From: Gemmatimonadota bacterium
GTDB lineage: Bacteria > Gemmatimonadota > Gemmatimonadetes > Longimicrobiales > RSA9
NCBI GenBank assembly: GCA_052389275.1
Contig: JBQTID010000055.1
Span: forward strand, 1 to 63,334
Length of the DNA: 63,334 nucleotides
Reading direction: 5' to 3'
A model generated the notes under the pieces. It was not told where the DNA came from and did not search any database. It saw only the letters and a list, made by a program, of their open reading frames with translations. A program made the translations under genes and the position numbers. Below are positions 2,718 to 57,000 of this stretch, piece by piece; the first letter of the stretch is position 1, and the number at the start of each line of letters is the position of its first letter.

Positions 2718-4922
2718 GTGATACAGGGTCCGGATACGCCCTGGAGTGATGTCCTGCGCAGTCAGCTTACGTGGCAGTCGCTAGCAGCGGCTTCCACGTT
2801 ATTCTCGCTTGCCATTCGTCCTCGTCTGTTCGCGAATCGCGCCGAACAAACGCCGCAGGTTGCGCCGGATCGCCTGCGCGCGCTGCTCGACAAATCGTTT
2901 TCGGTCATGTGCATTGTCGATGGCATCGGCATTGTGCGCGCGATAACGCCGAATGCTGCGCACGTGCTCGGCGAGGCGTGCGATCGCGCAGCCGAGCTGG
3001 AGCTGGCGTTCGGGGAGCTGCTCCAAGCCGACCACCCCGAAGCGGTGCAAGCTGCGCTCGATGAGTTATCGCGCGCGGATGCAGCGGAGATGCGCACCTG
3101 GACTTTCCGAACCCGCGCACCGGACGGTACGCCGCGCCGGCTGGAAGCGGTCGGCACAAATCGTTTGTTCGATGCGGATATCACCGGCTTCACATTCGAG
3201 ATCCGCGACATAACCAAATCCTACGCCGCTCAGCAGCGCAATCGCATTTCGGGCACCGCTCTCGAACAATCTCCAGACAGTGTCATCATCACCAACGCCC
3301 AAGGCTTCATCGAATACGTCAATTCTGCATTCGAGAATTTGTCGGGGTATCGTTTGCCGGAACTGCGCGGCCGCACACCGGCGCTGTTGAAGTCGGACAA
3401 GCAGCCACCCGAAGTCTTCGAGCGCATGTGGCGCATACTGAAGGCGGGCAACGTATTCCGCGGTGAAGTCGCCAACCGCAAGAAGTCTGGCGAGATCTAC
3501 TTCGAAGACCTGATCATCGAGCCGATTCACGACGACCATGGGGTAGTGACCCATTTCATCTCGATTGGCCGCGACATTACCGAGAAGAAGCGCGCCGACA
3601 CGAACGCCGAAAGCGCGGCCTTCTACGATCCGATCAGCGGCATATCGACCTTCAAGCTGCTGCGCGAGCGGTCGCGTCAGATGCTGGCGCTCGCGCGTCG
3701 CCACGGTCATACCGCGGCGCTGCTGCATATCGACTTGAATGGGCTGCAAGCCGTCAACATCAGCCTCGGCCGCGAGGTCGGTGATGAGCTGTTACGCAAA
3801 TTCGCGGAACGCTTGAAGCAGGGGCTGCGCGAGAGCGATTCGATTGCGCGCCTGCACAGTGATGAGTTCCTGATCCTGCTCAGCGATGTCGCGGAGGAAG
3901 ATGCGACTGCTCGCGTGGTCCGCCGCCTGAAGGACAGCGTGAGTCGTCCGTTCCAGATCGGCTCGCATTCCGTCAACCTGGGCGCCAGCTTCGGTGTGTC
4001 TCTATACCCACAGGATGCGACGACCTTCGACGAGATGCTCGAGTATGCTTCGCTCGCAATGAAGCGCGCGCAGAGCAGTGGCAGCGGCTACGAATTCTAT
4101 CGCAAGGAGCTGACCGAGATCACCCTCGAGCGGCTCTCACTCGAAGACGATCTGCGCTGGGCCTGGGAACGCAAACAGTTCGTGCTGCACTATCAGCCCG
4201 TGATTGCGCTCTCCACGAACCGCATGATCGGCGCGGAAGCGCTGGCGCGCGGCCACATCATCGGCGCCGAAGCGCTGGCGCGCTGGCCGCACATGGAACG
4301 CGGCGAGATTTCTCCCGCGCAATTCATCCCGGTCGCCGAGCGCACGGGCCGCATTGTCGCACTGGATCGCTGGGCGATCGCGACTGCGACACGGCAGGCG
4401 GCCATGTGGTCACAGGAAGGCTGGCAAGGCTGGGTCTCCGTCAATTTGTCGGCGCGCTCGCTGCACGACGCGGACCTCCCCAGCTACATCGCGCGCTGCT
4501 TCGAGACGCACGGCCTGGAAGCCGGGCGCCTGGTGCTCGAGGTCACCGAGAGCGCGGCGATGCGCGATATCGAGATTACCGCGCGTATTCTCACGCAGCT
4601 GAAGCAGGCGGGCGCACTGATAGCACTCGATGATTTCGGCGTCGGGCATTCCTCACTTGCATACCTCAAGCATTTCCCGGTTGATCTGCTCAAGCTCGAT
4701 CACAACTTCGTGTCGGGCATTGGCTACGAGAAAAAGCACGAGCATCTGATCGAGACCATGATTACGCTGGCGCACCGGATCGGGGCGCAGGTCGTGGCGG
4801 AAGGCGTGGAGCAGGGCGAGCAACTGGATTGGCTGCGGTGCGCGGAATGCGACTATGTGCAGGGTTATTTGCTCGGCAGGCCGCAGCCGGCCGATGTTGT
4901 TTGGGGGAGCGTGGGAACATGA
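2718..4922 (+). CDS. PAS - degenerate GGDEF - EAL signalling protein (probable c-di-GMP phosphodiesterase)
   Basis: 734 aa ORF. PAS-like blocks (SPDSVIITNAQGFIEYVNSAFENLSGY). The GGDEF position reads HSDEF. EAL-domain blocks are present: EALAR, QFIPVAERTG, LEVTES, ALDDFGVGHSSLAYLK, AEGVE, QGYL. Confidence 0.85.
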   Translation: MIQGPDTPWSDVLRSQLTWQSLAAASTLFSLAIRPRLFANRAEQTPQVAPDRLRALLDKSFSVMCIVDGIGIVRAITPNAAHVLGEACDRAAELELAFGELLQADHPEAVQAALDELSRADAAEMRTWTFRTRAPDGTPRRLEAVGTNRLFDADITGFTFEIRDITKSYAAQQRNRISGTALEQSPDSVIITNAQGFIEYVNSAFENLSGYRLPELRGRTPALLKSDKQPPEVFERMWRILKAGNVFRGEVANRKKSGEIYFEDLIIEPIHDDHGVVTHFISIGRDITEKKRADTNAESAAFYDPISGISTFKLLRERSRQMLALARRHGHTAALLHIDLNGLQAVNISLGREVGDELLRKFAERLKQGLRESDSIARLHSDEFLILLSDVAEEDATARVVRRLKDSVSRPFQIGSHSVNLGASFGVSLYPQDATTFDEMLEYASLAMKRAQSSGSGYEFYRKELTEITLERLSLEDDLRWAWERKQFVLHYQPVIALSTNRMIGAEALARGHIIGAEALARWPHMERGEISPAQFIPVAERTGRIVALDRWAIATATRQAAMWSQEGWQGWVSVNLSARSLHDADLPSYIARCFETHGLEAGRLVLEVTESAAMRDIEITARILTQLKQAGALIALDDFGVGHSSLAYLKHFPVDLLKLDHNFVSGIGYEKKHEHLIETMITLAHRIGAQVVAEGVEQGEQLDWLRCAECDYVQGYLLGRPQPADVVWGSVGT

Positions 4923-4976
4923 GAACATGGGAGCATGGGTTTCGCGTTCCCATGCTGCCATGATCCCATGATCCCC
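4903..4976. repeat. period-8 inverted-arm hairpin (GGGAGCAT family) between convergent genes
   Basis: Left arm is GGGAGCGT GGGAACAT GAGAACAT GGGAGCAT GGG, loop TTTCGCGTT, right arm CCCATGCT GCCATGAT CCCATGAT CCCC. The stem is about 27 bp with 4-5 mismatches. The left arm contains the last codons and the stop of the EAL gene. Confidence 0.85.
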
Positions 4977-5855
4977 TCATCTCTCACTGATAGGGGCGGC
5001 TTCGGCCGCCTTTTTCTTTTCTTCCCGCTCTTTTTCCTTGCGCGCGCGAATCGCTTTCACTCGCTGATTGAAGCTCTGACGTCCGATCTCGGAGCTCGCC
5101 TGCCGCTCGATCTCGGCGAAATCGCGGTTGCGCGCGTTGATCTCATCGCGCCGGCCGTCGGGTGCCTTGAACGCGACCTGCGGCAACTTGATGTCGCCCA
5201 ATTGAATCGTGCCGTCCGGATTGATGCCCCAGCGCTTGCCGTCCTTGGTCTTGATCGTCCAGTCGAATGCGCGCCTGCGCGCCTCGGCTTCCGCAGCGAC
5301 CGAGTCGTGGTAGGCTCCCAGACTTTGCGCGATACGCGCGCGCACCGCCGCAGCGGGTGATGCATCCGGAGGCAGCGTGTAGCGCGCGCTACCGCTCAGA
5401 CGTGGGTCGATCGTGGTCGGCCGCAGGCGATCCGCCAGCGAGCCGCCCCGACCGCCGCCGTCATCGGCTGGCTCGACCGTTTCGGGACCCGGCGTAGCTT
5501 CCGGAATTCCTACAACCGGCCCCGGCGTCAGAATGACTTCCTCGGCGCCGGTTCGATCGCGATCCCGGTCTCGATCCCGACTCGATGCCGGCTCGACCGG
5601 CGCCGCAGTCTGTGGCATGCTGATGATTTGTGGCTCGTCTTCGGGAACCACAATCGTGATTTGCTCGAAGAGCTTGTGTGCGAGCGTTGGGATGAACGGT
5701 CTGGTTAGAAGGATCAGCAGCCCAATCGCGACGATATGAACAAGCACCGCGAGCGCGAGGGATGTTGGAGAGCGCGTGCCGCCCGGTTTGGTCGCGAGCA
5801 GCGTCCCGAACAAGCGGGGGCTGTCGGGTCTGCGCTTCTGTCCTTCTACAGCCAT
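4977..5855 (-). CDS. hypothetical membrane-anchored protein with Pro/Asp/Arg-rich linker
   Basis: 292 aa ORF with an N-terminal TM segment (LALAVLVHIVAIGLLILL), an RDRDRDRDR low-complexity linker and a Lys/Glu-rich C-terminus. I recognised no family. Confidence 0.5.
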   Translation of the reverse strand: MAVEGQKRRPDSPRLFGTLLATKPGGTRSPTSLALAVLVHIVAIGLLILLTRPFIPTLAHKLFEQITIVVPEDEPQIISMPQTAAPVEPASSRDRDRDRDRTGAEEVILTPGPVVGIPEATPGPETVEPADDGGGRGGSLADRLRPTTIDPRLSGSARYTLPPDASPAAAVRARIAQSLGAYHDSVAAEAEARRRAFDWTIKTKDGKRWGINPDGTIQLGDIKLPQVAFKAPDGRRDEINARNRDFAEIERQASSEIGRQSFNQRVKAIRARKEKEREEKKKAAEAAPISER

Positions 5856-50937: not shown

Positions 50938-51168
50938 GCGGGCGAGGGCTTGGGCGAGCAACTCGGGAAACAAACTCGGGCGCGGTCGCGGGCGGGGGCG
51001 CGGGCGTGGGAAGCAACGCGGTCGCGGGAGGCGGAGCGCGGGTCGAGGTCGTGGGCAAGGGTGGCCTGTCCAGCGCGACCGCGCCCGGGACGCGCAACCC
51101 TCGATCCGAAAGTGTCCCGCGCCCGCGACCACGCCCGCGACCGCGACCGCGACCGCGACCGCGACCGC
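50938..51168. repeat. GC-rich palindromic element (GCGGGCGC / GGGAA family) ending in (GACCGC) x6
   Basis: The left half has GGGCGCGGTCGCGGGCGGGGGCGCGGGCGTGGGAA. The right half has TCCCGCGCCCGCGACCACGCCCGC followed by GACCGC x6. It starts directly after the stop codon of the OsmC-like gene. Confidence 0.85.
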
Positions 51169-51624
51169 TCAAATCTCGCTAATGTCCGCCGTCCAGGAGA
51201 CTTCGACAGCGCCCCGAAGCGAGGCCGCTGTCGGGCATTTCTCCTGATGCTTGGCCAGCAGCCGATCCACGGTTTCCCGCGTGCCGATCGGAATGCGCAA
51301 CCGGTAGTTCACTGTGATGCGCGTAAGTACGGGCAGGCCATCGCGAATTTCGTTGTCACCAACGACATCCGCGGTAATTGCATCGCCGCTCAACTTCACC
51401 CCGCGAGCTTCCAGCCCGCCGCTCAGTGTGCCGAGCATTCAGGCACCAGTCGCACCCACGATGTAGTCCACCGGCAGCGGCAGGTCCTTTTCCTTATCCA
51501 GTTTGTAGTGCGCCTTGATCGCGCCGTGCACGCCGGTATCGAATACATCACCGGTTTCGAGTGTGATGCGACGCTGCGTGCCCTCGATTTTTACGACGCG
51601 CGCCCGGGATTCGTAAAAGCTCAT
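51169..51624 (-). CDS. OsmC/YhfA-like protein interrupted by an in-frame TGA at 51439-51441 (candidate selenoprotein, or nonsense-split gene)
   Basis: ORFs 51439..51624 and 51169..51438 are contiguous and in the same frame. The joined product reads ..PLPVDYIVGATGA[TGA]MLGTLSGGLEARG..HQEKCPTAASL. The TGA sits where OsmC-family proteins have their first conserved Cys, and the second conserved Cys (CP) is present. Confidence 0.6.
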
Positions 51625-52673
51625 GGCAGTTCTTTCCAGATGTTCGGATCCTCTGGTCCGAGAACCCAGACGCTGAAGCCGCGCAGATTCTTCCTGCGCA
51701 TCAAGTCGAGTTTTGCCGCGAAGCTGCGCGCGTCCTCCACGAACAGATACTCGAATGTGCCTGCGACCGGATAAAAGGTATAGGAGACCTTGTGCTCGTC
51801 GTGCCAGGTCAGCTGCGCGCCGTTTCGTTCGGCGAGGTGGCGCGCCCAGTTGTAGCTGACGTTCTGGCTGTAGGAGCGCGCCAGCTCCGGCGTGATACGG
51901 TCTTCCTGCGAGGTGTACCAGTGCATGCTGCCGACGGGAATCCCGAGCGACAGCTTCCCCGCAGGCATGAACTTCAGAAAGTAGTCGACGACGTCTTCCG
52001 CCCAGGGCAACGCCGAACTCGGCCCGGGTGGCGTGCGGCGCGTGTGCTGCGAGTAGCTCATCACCGAAATGAAATCACCGGCGTCGGCAAGTGCCTTCAG
52101 GTCGTAGCCGCCGCGCCAGTCCGCCATCATCCAGGCGTGATACTGTGACACGCCCGCGACTTCTTCCGGCCGGTGCACGACCGCAATGCTGATGATCCTG
52201 CCGGCCGCATGCATCGCGTTAGCAGCCTCGCGGTAGAACGACGTCAAGGCATCACGATCGTCGATGCTGACGTTCTCGAAATCGATCTGCATGCCCCAGT
52301 AGTCGTGTCGTTTGCTCAGCTCGACCATCGAAGCGATCGCGCGTGCGCGCGCGGCCGGACTGCTGAGCAGCTGATGCAGCAGGTCCTTGTCGAACGGCCG
52401 GTTCACGAGCAGTGGCATGACGCGCACGTTGTGGTGTCTGGACAGCTCGAGGACTTTCGGATCGACGTCGCCCCAGACAATGCCCTGCTCATCGACTCCG
52501 TAGGACGAGGGCGCAATCACACTGATTTGCGAGGCGTGCTGGACGAAGCTGTTGTAGGCGTCTTCGCGGTCGACGTAGTAGAAGATGCGCTCGAAACCCT
52601 GCGCTTGAGACACCGCGGTCCCGCCGGCGGCGAGAGCCAGCAGGACCGTGGCGATGCGTAGTTCAATCCGCAT
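51621..52673 (-). CDS. secreted glycoside hydrolase family 18-like protein
   Basis: 350 aa with a signal peptide (MRIELRIATVLLALAAGGTAVSQA). GMQIDFENVS matches the D-x-E end of the GH18 catalytic motif. Its stop overlaps the OsmC-like start (ATGA). Confidence 0.7.
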   Translation of the reverse strand: MRIELRIATVLLALAAGGTAVSQAQGFERIFYYVDREDAYNSFVQHASQISVIAPSSYGVDEQGIVWGDVDPKVLELSRHHNVRVMPLLVNRPFDKDLLHQLLSSPAARARAIASMVELSKRHDYWGMQIDFENVSIDDRDALTSFYREAANAMHAAGRIISIAVVHRPEEVAGVSQYHAWMMADWRGGYDLKALADAGDFISVMSYSQHTRRTPPGPSSALPWAEDVVDYFLKFMPAGKLSLGIPVGSMHWYTSQEDRITPELARSYSQNVSYNWARHLAERNGAQLTWHDEHKVSYTFYPVAGTFEYLFVEDARSFAAKLDLMRRKNLRGFSVWVLGPEDPNIWKELP

Positions 52674-52677
52674 AGCG

Positions 52678-53994
52678 TCAGGTGGTCGTTTGCGGTTGGC
52701 AAAGCTCGGCTGGCGCGTTCGGGTTGTTCTGGCATTCCGGACGCGACACCATCATGAACCGGTACTTGAGAGGCTTGCCGAATCGCCTTGCATCAGCCCA
52801 GTGCAGCCCCTGCAGATACAGCTCATACTGACGCTCGCGGAAGATCGCCTCGAGCATTGCCGCCTGGGTCGGCACAGCGAGCAGCGTCAGCGCCGGCAAG
52901 CAGGCAACCGGCTCGTTCAACGTAGATGTGCACTGCGTCCGCACATCATTGAGCAGCGTGAGCGCTTCCGTCAAATTGCCGGCACGGGCGGCAACTTCCG
53001 CCCGAATCAGCAGCATCTCGTCCGGCAGGTACGCCGGGAAGCTCTCCTCGCGTGTCGAGTACCGCACGAAATCATCGAGCGGCGATGCTGGATTGGACGC
53101 GATGTTGCCGGTCGAAGCGCGCACGAAATAATCCACGCGTCTATCGCCAGGTTGCGCGCTGGTCCGGAAGCGGTCCTCCGGTCTCATGCGCCAGGCATTG
53201 CCGGAATTGAACCAGAGGTTCCAGAGCGGGTTCACGTCGGAGGTCGAGAACCGGTACTCGGATAACACATTGCGCGGAACGCGCGCGGCCGCAGTGGCCG
53301 CCGCATTGAGATCACCCGCGATGAGCGAGAAGCGAGCGATCATCGCATCAATGGTGGTCGCGAGATTGAAACCGGGCGCGGGCACGACACTCGTGAATTC
53401 CGCCGATACTGACGTGGTCAGGAGATGCTGCCGCGCCTCGTTCAGGAGCTTGAGCACTTCGGCATACGCTTCCTGCCGCGTCGCAAACGGTGGATCGAGA
53501 TTGTCGATACCCACATCGAGCGGAATGCGCTCGTAGATATTCAGCAGGTTCCCGAATGCCATCGCCTTGTGCAGCTTGGCCAGCGCGAGCAGCCCACTCG
53601 CGGTACCGTCCGCCATCGGCACGTTCGGCACATTGTCGAGCAATACATCGGCGACCTGTACCACATCGAACATCGCCGCCCACGGCTCTGTTGACGGCCC
53701 TTCGCTGTTATTGACCGGCAGGCCGGCATCCGCGTTTCGGAAACTCTCGAATGCCTGCGAGATCGCCCCGATGTTGTCGGTCACCAGTGCATCGGCATAC
53801 ACAGGGTTGACGAGTGCGTTGCCCCATTCTCCCTGCAAGCCAACGCCGACCTGCATCAGGCCGAGTGTGGTCGTCGTCGCCAATTCTTCGGGCGGGTTGA
53901 TCGGATCGGTGAAATCCATGTCGCAGGCACTGACCACGAGCGCAGCGACCATAGCGATGCTCAACCCGAGCTGACGTGTCGTCTTCATCATCAT
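52678..53994 (-). CDS. SusD/RagB-family outer-membrane lipoprotein
   Basis: 438 aa with lipoprotein signal MMMKTTRQLGLSIAMVAALVVSAC. It is helical and TPR-like, and lies immediately downstream of a SusC-type TonB-dependent transporter. Confidence 0.7.
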   Translation of the reverse strand: MMMKTTRQLGLSIAMVAALVVSACDMDFTDPINPPEELATTTTLGLMQVGVGLQGEWGNALVNPVYADALVTDNIGAISQAFESFRNADAGLPVNNSEGPSTEPWAAMFDVVQVADVLLDNVPNVPMADGTASGLLALAKLHKAMAFGNLLNIYERIPLDVGIDNLDPPFATRQEAYAEVLKLLNEARQHLLTTSVSAEFTSVVPAPGFNLATTIDAMIARFSLIAGDLNAAATAAARVPRNVLSEYRFSTSDVNPLWNLWFNSGNAWRMRPEDRFRTSAQPGDRRVDYFVRASTGNIASNPASPLDDFVRYSTREESFPAYLPDEMLLIRAEVAARAGNLTEALTLLNDVRTQCTSTLNEPVACLPALTLLAVPTQAAMLEAIFRERQYELYLQGLHWADARRFGKPLKYRFMMVSRPECQNNPNAPAELCQPQTTT

Positions 53995-54001
53995 CCTCGT
54001 G

Positions 54002-57000
54002 TCAGTAGGTGAGCCGCACGCCGAAGCCGATCGTGCGCGCGTTCGGGTACACGGCGAAGTCGGTGCCGCGCTCGACGGTGCTCAGGCCGAACATGTTGAT
54101 TTCCGGATCGTAGCCGCCGTAATCCGTCCAGGTCTTCAGGTTGCGGCCAACCAACTCGAACTCCGCGCGGCTCGCGCCCACCGCACGCAACCAGGGCGCG
54201 GCCGTGCTGTAGCGGACGGTTATATCGCGCATTTTGATATAGGAAGCATCCTCGAGGTAATTCTCCCAGATGCTCTGAAGCCGTGTGCGCTGGGCTGGCG
54301 TCGCCTCGCCACGCAGCACCTGATCGAACAGCGGACCCGCGCCGAAGATGTCCTGATTGCGGCGTGTCTGATTCCACAGCTCTGCGCCAAACGAGCCATC
54401 CAGCAGGAACGAAGCACTCCAATTGCTGCCGAACCTGAACTCATTGAAGAGCGAACCGGTCCAGTCCGGCCACGGATTGCCGACAATACGCGAAGTCGAG
54501 TTGGGCAGACAGAACTGCGGCTCCGGGCACGTGGTGCCGAGGCGGTTCTCGAGCCGCGGTCCGTCGATGGCGGTATCCATTACGATTTGCCCACTCTCGT
54601 CACGCATGAAAGCAGGCATGAAGTGCACGCCAACCGGCTGACCCTCGATCACGAGGTTCGTGTAGCCGGCTGTGAAAGGCAGCACATTGAGCTTCTCGAT
54701 CCTGTTCTCGTTGCGTGAATAAATGACCCGCGAATTCCAGCTGAAGCTCCCGCGTGTCAGGTTTTGCGTATTCAGCTCGAGCTCGATGCCTCTGTTACTC
54801 AGCTCACCGACGTTATCGAGAATGCTACCAAAACCCGCGCTCGGTACGAACGGCCGCACCAGGAGCAGGTCTGTCACGTATTGATCGTAATAAGTGAAGC
54901 GGGTGCCGATGCGATTGTTCAGCACGGCGAAGTCGACACCTGCCTCCCATTCGCGCTGACGCTCTGGCTTGAGCTCGGGGTTGCCCGGCGAGTTCAGCGG
55001 CACCAGCCCCAGGCGTGTAACGTTTGTTATCGACCCGAAGCGAGATACGCGCGCGAATGCTTGTGAGAGCGGCGGCTGGTTACCGGCATACCCGAGTGCA
55101 CCGCGCAGCCGGAGCTCGGAAACCCAAGGCACGGCGTCGCGTACGAATGATTCCTCTGAGGCCACCCACGATGCGCTCACCTTCGGGTAAATTTGCCAGC
55201 GCTCGTCTTCGCCGAATGTCGAGGAAGCATCCCAGCGCAGAGCGCCGGTCAGGTAGAGGCGATCATCGAACGACAGCTGCTGCTGGCCAAAGAACCCGAG
55301 CGTCACAAGCTCGATGCGTGCCTGGTCGGCGCGGTGTACGGCGCCACTCACCAGATCGGTCTGCGGAACCAGGTCCGTGGCCGATGCGTTGAGCTGATCC
55401 AGACGCTGATACGTGTGATTCAGTCCCGCGGATGACGTGAAGCGCAGCTGCTGCGAGCCGAAGTCGTAGCTTGCAGCAAGGTCGTTGTTCAGCAGGATAT
55501 TGCGCCGATTGGCGGAAGTCGCACTACCAAGCGGCGTGCCGACGGTGCCGCGCGGAATCGACAGCATCGTTTCCATCGCATACTGGTCATAGCCGAGAGT
55601 GTAATTCAAACGAAGCGAGCCGAACGGATTTGACCGCGCCTGAAATGACCCGACGAATCGGTTAATGTCCTGCGGACTCGAGAACGTCTCGAGCACGTAC
55701 AGCGGATTCAGGAACACACCTGCCTGTCTATTCACGAACTCGCCCGTGACCGGGTCGCGTGCCGTCAAGTCAATCGTGGTCGGTGCAAACACCGCCGCAG
55801 TAAGCAGACCGCCCGAGCCTTGCTCGCCGTTGATGACCAGATCGGTATGCGAGCGAATGTAATTCGCACCTGCGGCGAGGTTCAGCCAATCCGCGACCTT
55901 CTGGTCGATATTCATCCGGACATTCAGCTTCCTGTGATCGGAGCCACGCATGATGCCGTTTTCGTTCGCGAGATTGCCGGAGATGTAGTACTGCGTCTCC
56001 GGGCTGCCGCCGGAAACGGACAAATACGTGTCGGTGCTCCAGGGCTCACGGAAGAGCAGCGGCTGCGGGTCGAAGCGCGGCGCGCTAATGGTACCCGAGT
56101 TCAAGCACGTCGGACACAGTCCCAGGTCCAGATTGGTCGGGGTCAGCGCAAATTCAATTGTGCGCTCGAGGTCATTGCGCGTCATCCGCGTGCCGGCCAC
56201 CACGCGATTAATGCCTGCTCTACCGCGCTTGGTGAAGATCTGCACGACGCCGTTGTTCGCGCGCGAGCCATAGAGCGCAGCTGCGGCTGCCCCTTTGAGG
56301 ATCTCTACACGTTCGACGTCGTCGGGATCTAGATCTGCGAGACGGTTCGACGGATTCGAGCGATAACCGAAGTTGATCTGCTGATCGGCGTTATTGTCTA
56401 TGATGACGCCGTCCACAATGATCAATGGTTCTGCGCCCGCGACGATCGAGCTGGTGCCGCGCAAACGCATGGACACGCCGCCACCCGGATTGCCGGTGTT
56501 GCTGGTAATCGTGGCGCCCGCAACTTTGCCCTGAAGCGCCTGGTCGATGGTAGTCGCGGTCGCTTCCGAGATCTGTTCACTCGAGACGGTCGATACCGCG
56601 TTTCCCAGTGCGCGCCGAGCAGTCGGCGCGGCCGTACCGGTGACCACCACTTCTTCTAGTGCAAGCACAGCCTGACCGAGCTCGAAATCGGGAACGTCGA
56701 CGACACGCGCAGCGCCAAGCGTGATCGATCGCCGCTGTTGCTCACGTCCGATCATCGTCGCTTCCACGACGTACTGGCCGGGATTCAGCTGCGCCACTAT
56801 CGAATACACGCCATCGGCATTGGTCAGTCCGCCATAGCGCGTGCCCCGGATCGCAACCTGCACGCCCGGGATCGGCGCGTCACCTTCGACCGCAAGCGCA
56901 CGACCCGTAATCGTGTAGGTCGCCTGCTGCGCGCTGGTCGGGTCTGCCACGATAACGCTCCCCAAAATGCACAGCATCAGGCACGCGAATGTCACGCGAC

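Follow-up and report, generated by a model that had tools for sequence, protein, structure and literature searches.

OsmC-like proteins (PF02566, COG1765, motif UxxT) have been a catalogued family of prokaryotic selenoproteins since the analysis of the Sargasso Sea (Zhang et al., 2005; PMC1088965), and an OsmC-like selenoprotein was found again in the Global Ocean Sampling (GOS) analysis (2008; PMC2398784). A review from 2026 lists a single form of OsmC-like selenoprotein (PMC13188914). Here, we describe an OsmC-family gene on the minus strand (51624-51169) of contig JBQTID010000055.1 from a Gemmatimonadota bacterium; the whole stretch of 63,334 nucleotides that was analysed is referred to below as the window. 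With a probability that we put at about 0.9, this is one intact gene of 151 residues whose codon 62, an in-frame UGA, is decoded as selenocysteine (Sec). No new mechanism is involved, as both the recoding of UGA through a selenocysteine insertion sequence (SECIS) and OsmC-like selenoproteins are already established.

The locus comprises two open reading frames (ORFs) in the same frame, one of 61 amino acids (51624-51439) that terminates in TGA (51441-51439), and one of 89 amino acids (51438-51169) whose first codon directly follows that TGA. Joined, they give 61 + 1 + 89 = 151 residues, as the first-pass annotation of this DNA had proposed, and the joined gene contains neither frameshifts nor additional stops. 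The peptide reads ..PLPVDYIVGATGA-TGA-MLGTLSGGLEARG.. around the internal stop, with ..AKHQEKCPTAASLRG present further downstream. Together, the ORFs and the PF02566 match delimit a complete, probable selenoprotein gene of 151 codons (51169-51624, minus strand; M1 to I151, with U62) plus a terminal TGA. Protein-level conservation in relatives supports the N-terminal 61 codons (51442-51624), which gene callers list separately as a small ORF or omit. The C-terminal 89 codons (51172-51438) are entered in databases as an independent "OsmC family protein" of 89 aa and include the second catalytic Cys, C130 (TGC, 51237-51235), within the invariant motif HQEKCPTA; the true terminal stop, again TGA, lies at 51169-51171. 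At the other end, the ATG of the OsmC gene overlaps the TGA stop of an upstream GH18 gene (ATGA at 51624-51621). Matches obtained with tblastn in 80 genomes span the internal TGA (query residues ~3-150), and the TGA was reproduced in an independent public run, in which a contig piece (X1, 51329-51479) shows 0 differences at ~2x depth.

Assignment of the joined protein to the OsmC family, which had been suggested at first pass as OsmC/YhfA-like, is borne out by its match to Pfam PF02566 (47.2 bits, cutoff 27.5; E = 3.2e-12; residues 47-144). In a profile alignment to OsmC from Thermus thermophilus (1UKK), U62 falls on the first Cys (AG-C-FS) and C130 on the second (EG-C-P). Both of these aligned cysteines are catalytic in OsmC. 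The second Cys, previously noted as an intact CP, is invariant among the 13-14 aligned full-length sequences. For the fold, the nearest natural Cys form of the protein (P0002, 68% identical to the window protein) stood in for the window protein; its AlphaFold model reached a mean predicted local distance difference test score (pLDDT) of 85.7 and a predicted template modelling score (pTM) of 0.82. Foldseek matched this model with a probability of 1.00 to Escherichia coli OsmC, T. thermophilus OsmC, and many Ohr structures, and its top 50 PDB matches were all OsmC/Ohr or OsmC-like structural-genomics entries. On the evidence of this model, the window protein shares the OsmC/Ohr fold. The two redox residues of that fold, one at the start of helix 1 and the other in the C-terminal helix, are conserved as U62 and C130 in the alignment to 1UKK.

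The best structural matches of the P0002 model are the OsmC peroxiredoxins (E. coli 1NYE/1QWI; T. thermophilus 1UKK), with Foldseek E values of 2e-7 to 1e-6. Both catalytic Cys columns align, and two-residue hydroperoxide reduction would follow by analogy. In sequence, however, the identity is 17-20%, and the window protein scores 15.9 bits with TIGR03562 against a cutoff of 85.8. These enzymes use a peroxidatic Cys where the window protein has Sec, and the motifs GVHG and PLPxDY, invariant in the N-terminal region of the full-length homologues, are the window branch's own. Ohr (TIGR03561; 6ECY, 1N2F, 1ZB9) has the same fold and two-Cys arrangement, but its structural match is weaker than that of OsmC (E ~1e-5), and the TIGR03561 score of the window protein is 16.3 bits, where the cutoff is 88.85.

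Among described selenoproteins, the nearest are the OsmC-like proteins covered by NF041052, "OsmC-related (seleno)protein". They share with the window gene the OsmC fold and PF02566, one Sec that takes the place of the first catalytic Cys, where the long helix begins, and a downstream Cys, and they likewise carry a bacterial SECIS (bSECIS) right after the UGA. BLASTP aligns U40 of the Sargasso Sea protein AACY01145085 with residue 62 of the window protein (U, or C in Cys forms), at 26% identity over 47 residues. Although NF041052 is the best NCBIfam model for the window protein, it scores 24.8 bits, where the cutoff is 95; Cys-form relatives reach 31-37 bits, whereas AACY01145085, used as a positive control, scores 157.4. 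The redox motif differs as well, being U-M-L-G-T in the window (Thr at +4) and U-L-L-T in the Sargasso protein (UxxT; ...AGIGF-U-LLTQL...), as does the context of the second Cys (HQEKCPTA versus KQGCFAE in NF041052-type proteins). Even the hosts are distinct: GC-rich Gemmatimonadota and Eisenbacteria for the branch that includes the window, and low-GC marine plankton for the Sargasso/GOS type. Because the window protein falls below the NF041052 cutoff, it is placed in a separate branch of the OsmC superfamily. Thus, the earlier statement that OsmC-like selenoproteins have been reported in surveys holds in that such families are published, but the published ones belong to a different OsmC branch.

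The residue that homologues carry at the TGA column is informative. A protein search returned 13 full-length homologues (~153 aa, 60-68% identity), together with more than 100 shorter matches (88-101 aa, 70-89% identity) confined to the C-terminal 58% of the query. Of the 13 full-length proteins, 12 place a Cys precisely in the TGA column (ATG[GA]-C-MLGTL), as had been predicted from the sequence; for three of the Cys-form loci (L084, L085, and L090) the codon was confirmed in the DNA as TGT or TGC. The thirteenth homologue, P0013, has a W at this column, and its DNA (L086) reads TGA followed by a perfect hairpin. This record (L086, 89-613) is a JGI gene call, apparently made with code 4 or 25, which translated the Sec-TGA as Trp and overran the real terminal TGA. 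The resulting 174-aa protein has a spurious C-terminal tail and shows that selenoprotein genes can trigger wrong-code calls.

Conservation of the TGA itself was examined across genomes and metagenomes. A scan of GTDB, taking one genome per species, found a relative in 206 species, of which the best 80 were kept. The carriers among these 80 are mostly Gemmatimonadota (Gemmatimonadales, Longimicrobiales, and Ca. Palauibacter), alongside six Ca. Eisenbacteria and a small number of bins labelled Acidobacteriota, Gammaproteobacteria, or Multivoradales. Complete or near-complete genomes are also represented among TGA-form carriers (OY970342.1, CP070670.1, OZ243123.1, NZ_OZ250143.1, OY970192.1, OZ220691.1, NZ_OZ253465.1, OZ241352.1, and BEIJ01000001.1). 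A metagenome scan by peptide patterns added 8 short contigs, which served as close relatives and controls. In all 83 scorable sequences (the window and 82 loci), the codon at the column is TGA; TAA, TAG, TGC, and TGT never occur there. Beyond these 83, eight metagenomic genes contribute TGA forms. Within the best 80 GTDB species loci, the TGA was scorable and present in 78. Counted as distinct genes, 84/84 (from ~80 species, at 57-89% identity) have TGA as their internal stop, and relatives that carry Cys instead are confined to one subclade. The terminal stops of the same genes are mixed (TGA 60, TAG 13, TAA 10), a distribution that differs from that of the internal stop with a Fisher p of 1.8e-8.

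Both halves of the gene also carry the mark of translation. Downstream of the TGA (88 codons), nucleotide diversity by codon position is 0.27/0.22/0.51, and upstream of it (30 codons) 0.30/0.32/0.51; this excess of variation at third positions on both sides indicates that, as judged from the substitution pattern, both halves are translated under purifying selection. That the TGA recurs throughout the 84 distinct genes, and the hairpin with it in all but a few, is far beyond chance.

The SECIS-type hairpin was already recognised in the first-pass annotation, as GCGGGC-UGGAA-GCUCGC at 51419-51403, and it is indeed present. It can be drawn as a 7-bp stem in which 51419-51413 pairs with 51409-51403, including one G-U and a closing U-A pair, around the loop GGA (51412-51410), or equally as a 6-bp stem with a UGGAA loop. 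The stem begins 22 nt past the first base of the UGA, such that, counted from the U, nt 23-29 pair with nt 33-39; the pentaloop lies 26-30 nt past the A of the UGA. The minimum free energy (MFE) of the hairpin is -9.0 kcal/mol. According to the published bSECIS model, the loop should measure 3-9 nt and the stem 4-16 bp, with a G within the first two positions of the loop, a spacing of 16-37 nt from the UGA, and an MFE of -7.5 kcal/mol or lower (PMC13188914, section 5). The window hairpin agrees with this model on all four points, with U-GG-A-R fitting N1-G[G|U]-N-N2 and a spacing of 25-26 nt, in keeping with the earlier claim that it lies within the range of bacterial SECIS elements; so do the hairpins of 80/83 Sec forms. 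Its loop of 3-5 nt and stem of 6-7 bp likewise fit a bSECISearch-type consensus. Compared with the SECIS of E. coli fdhF, the hairpin is shorter and simpler, with no bulged U evident.

Comparative data support this structure. In an alignment of 64 distinct 60-mers (A2), 98.4% of cells at the paired columns are standard pairs, a value reached by 0/500 column shuffles, and sliding the partner by 1-3 columns reduces it to 18-70%. RNAalifold independently predicts the same helix. Double (compensatory) changes are seen at 3/7 pairs: for example, pair 27-35 occurs as A-U (35), G-C (23), and G-U (5), and pair 26-36 as C-G (58), U-A (3), and G-U (2). On a rough neighbour-joining (NJ) tree, the alternative pair states are spread over several clades. 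At the codon level, the third position of an Ala codon (GCA/GCG) covaries with the second position of a Val/Ala codon (GUG/GCG) four codons on, a linkage that selection on the protein by itself does not predict.

Sec and Cys forms of the gene are positional orthologues, sharing the order EPSP synthase, Cu-oxidase_4, OsmC, rimP, nusA, infB, and their comparison isolates the hairpin from the peptide that it encodes. In the window subclade this peptide is GGLEARG. All 9/9 Sec forms of the subclade (the window, L017, L087-L089, and L091-L094) spell it GGC GGG CUG GAR GCU CGC, giving 7/7 pairs, whereas the three Cys-form genes available as DNA encode GGLEARG, GGLAARG, and GGLQARG with other codons, giving 5/7, 5/7, and 3/7 pairs; in two of these three the GGA loop is missing. 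The downstream hairpin is thus conserved and covarying in relatives that carry TGA, and lacking in these three Cys forms.

On the rough NJ tree, which carries no support values, the 12 Cys forms group together in one clade, to which the window and L017 are the closest Sec forms; all remaining sequences are Sec forms as well. This topology suggests that Sec is ancestral and Cys derived. The Cys-form homologues (L084, L085, L090, and the contigs of P0001-P0012) are all metagenomic, with two ENA contig names referring to farmland and forest, and the pattern suggests that Sec was replaced by Cys in one soil lineage beside that of the window. At NCBI and JGI, the branch is recorded as fragments of 88-101 aa, some named "OsmC family protein" and others "organic hydroperoxide reductase OsmC/OhrA", and current pipelines thus fail to identify it as a selenoprotein. 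With some hesitation, we lean towards regarding these genes as a second, separate Sec branch of the OsmC superfamily, defined by ATG[GA]-U-MLGTL...HQEKCPTA, in which Sec would be ancestral, Sec-to-Cys replacement and SECIS loss would have taken place in a soil subclade, and annotation pipelines have overlooked the selenoprotein.

Explanations other than Sec insertion must be weighed against these data. The TGA could have arisen through a simple TGC/TGT-to-TGA nonsense mutation, which the first-pass annotation had named as the alternative, or through a sequencing or assembly error, leaving a pseudogene of two dead ORFs; the 88-101-aa "OsmC family protein" fragments produced by gene callers and NCBI annotation, and a contig without Sec machinery, are what such a scenario would lead one to expect. 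A TGA kept in 84/84 genes of ~80 species (57-89% identity), all of them distinct sequences and not assembly copies of a single one, excludes it for practical purposes. Neither the third-position-biased variation kept in both halves, nor the lack of frameshifts and extra stops, nor a hairpin conserved with compensatory changes befits a dead gene, and the TGA was reproduced in an independent run; the chance that this explanation is correct is negligible. A genuinely split gene is harder to dismiss on inspection. Here, translation would stop at the UGA and reinitiate at the adjacent AUG, and the 61- and 89-aa products would form an OsmC fold minus its first catalytic residue. An AUG does stand directly after the UGA in 77/84 genes, UGA-AUG is a classic termination-reinitiation junction, and the G-rich Gly codons just upstream could resemble a Shine-Dalgarno sequence. 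However, the Met after the column is equally conserved in Cys forms (C-M-L-G-T), which makes the AUG a feature of the protein rather than a start signal, and seven genes have CUG (4) or CUA (3) in its place. A plain stop would, moreover, be expected to vary between TGA, TAG, and TAA in the manner of the terminal stop (p = 2e-8). A split gene also leaves the covarying hairpin, found only in TGA forms, unexplained, and would have the catalytic residue deleted yet its partner C130 invariant. We therefore consider a split gene very unlikely.

The UGA might also be read as a standard residue, either by reassignment to Trp or Gly (codes 4 and 25) or by hairpin-stimulated near-cognate suppression with Cys or Trp, in both cases without Sec. 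Such decoding would accord with the Sec machinery not having been found in the contig or related loci, and one JGI call (P0013) did translate the TGA as Trp. The lineages known to use genetic codes 4 and 25 are low in GC. The window, by contrast, has 62% GC, and the OsmC gene, the GH18 gene upstream, and 60/83 orthologues all use TGA as their normal terminator; the code-4 call for P0013 overran the true stop. In homologues, the column is occupied by the catalytic Cys, the signature of Sec rather than of Trp or Gly, and the geometry of the hairpin with its GG loop fits the SelB-dependent bSECIS model, making hairpin-driven non-Sec recoding much less likely than Sec insertion. Overall, readthrough with a standard residue is as improbable as a split gene.

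Several observations do weigh against decoding of the UGA as Sec. No selA, selB, selD, tRNA, or Rfam family was detected in the window, that is, on the whole 63,334-base contig (ARAGORN, Rfam, and tblastn), and no sel genes were detected in ~0.55 Mb of related loci (ARAGORN on 60 loci, and tblastn). The SelD, SelA, and SelB probes used with tblastn were approximate E. coli sequences, and their sole matches were to the GTPase domain of infB. Sel genes were likewise not found within 10 kb of OsmC on long metagenomic contigs, where neighbours were labelled with Pfam, and a Sec trait in Gemmatimonadota was not found documented in the searchable literature. As for the hairpin, it is short and lies within a conserved coding stretch. 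No Rfam family matched it, a permissive threshold giving one chance-level sRNA match, and when the 73-nt segment is folded alone, it does not outperform shuffles (z = -0.86), so that the argument for the hairpin is a comparative one. Three Sec forms that belong to one clade (L006, L008, and L013) are without the canonical hairpin and have a different, less well supported structure. The Cys-form DNA controls number only three, and the read-level support for the TGA is a single contig piece at ~2x depth.

In the three divergent Sec forms (each at 3178-3237), the peptide is GALAVR and the loop CGC; in place of the canonical hairpin there appears to be a longer stem, spanning roughly nt 21-49 past the UGA, whose inner loop is of the GUUC type. 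These genes may represent a remodelling of the SECIS inside the coding sequence.

If the UGA is decoded as Sec, the following mechanism can be proposed. As the ribosome arrives at the UGA (51439-51441), the hairpin 22 nt downstream (51403-51419; 7 bp, apical U-GGA-R) would act as a bacterial SECIS and recruit SelB-GTP bearing Sec-tRNA(Sec), so that Sec would be inserted rather than translation terminated, and the remaining 89 codons would then be translated. The assignment of residue 62 to the first (peroxidatic) catalytic Cys position of OsmC/Ohr draws on the TGA in 84/84 genes, the Cys in homologues, and the alignments to 1UKK and the Sargasso protein; that of the SECIS draws on its folding energy, comparative pairing, RNAalifold, and the bSECIS criteria. 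The predicted product is a thiol/selenol-dependent hydroperoxide reductase of the OsmC/Ohr type with two active residues (Sec62/Cys130), in which Sec would stand in for the peroxidatic Cys and C130 would be the resolving residue. We infer both the incorporation of selenium at the UGA and the peroxidase activity with its reductant, and the presence of selA, selB, selC, and selD in this genome is assumed.

Recognition of the branch would have practical consequences. More than 100 listed entries hold only the C-terminal 89 of 151 residues, minus the catalytic residue, and would need correction. The branch would also constitute a distinct Sec-containing OsmC lineage with a natural experiment built in, namely positional orthologues with Sec and a SECIS versus those with Cys and no SECIS. 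Such orthologues would lend themselves to work on Sec/Cys exchange, the birth and death of a SECIS within a coding sequence, and the role of the selenol in peroxide reduction. The conservation of the TGA further implies that Sec decoding is common in Gemmatimonadota and Eisenbacteria, and if this is true, the gene could serve as a convenient marker of widespread Sec decoding in poorly studied soil and sponge phyla.

Gene order around the OsmC gene shows some variation. A SusD/GH18 cassette is located directly upstream of OsmC, separating it from the EPSP synthase/Cu-oxidase_4 genes that are its neighbours in other relatives, in the window (approximately 51621-57000) and in L095 (4530-9572), where it also holds a TonB-dependent receptor. 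The overlap of the GH18 stop with the OsmC start suggests that the two genes are co-transcribed in the window; a GH18 gene beside OsmC was not found in any of the 80 GTDB loci.

Scanning the window for further selenoprotein candidates yielded a region at 4410-4979 on the minus strand, along with others elsewhere, all of which were set aside as products of antisense-frame composition. The region at 4410-4979 lies opposite a 734-aa plus-strand gene (2718-4922). It contains three successive in-frame TGAs between coding-like ORFs in Cys-rich surroundings (..EVCK-stop-GMPDAEIIECYQCAR..) and is not a selenoprotein.

Directly past the OsmC stop, between OsmC and rimP, the hexamer CCGCGA is repeated 8.7 times in tandem (51117-51168). 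An imperfect inverted counterpart is located at 50977-51042, the 66-nt arms being 71% complementary. In two public runs, word depth across the stretch 50977-51168 was 36-63, versus ~2 in the flanks, which indicates that the repeat is multi-copy or common to many contigs. It may form a large terminator-like structure or belong to a dispersed repeat family.

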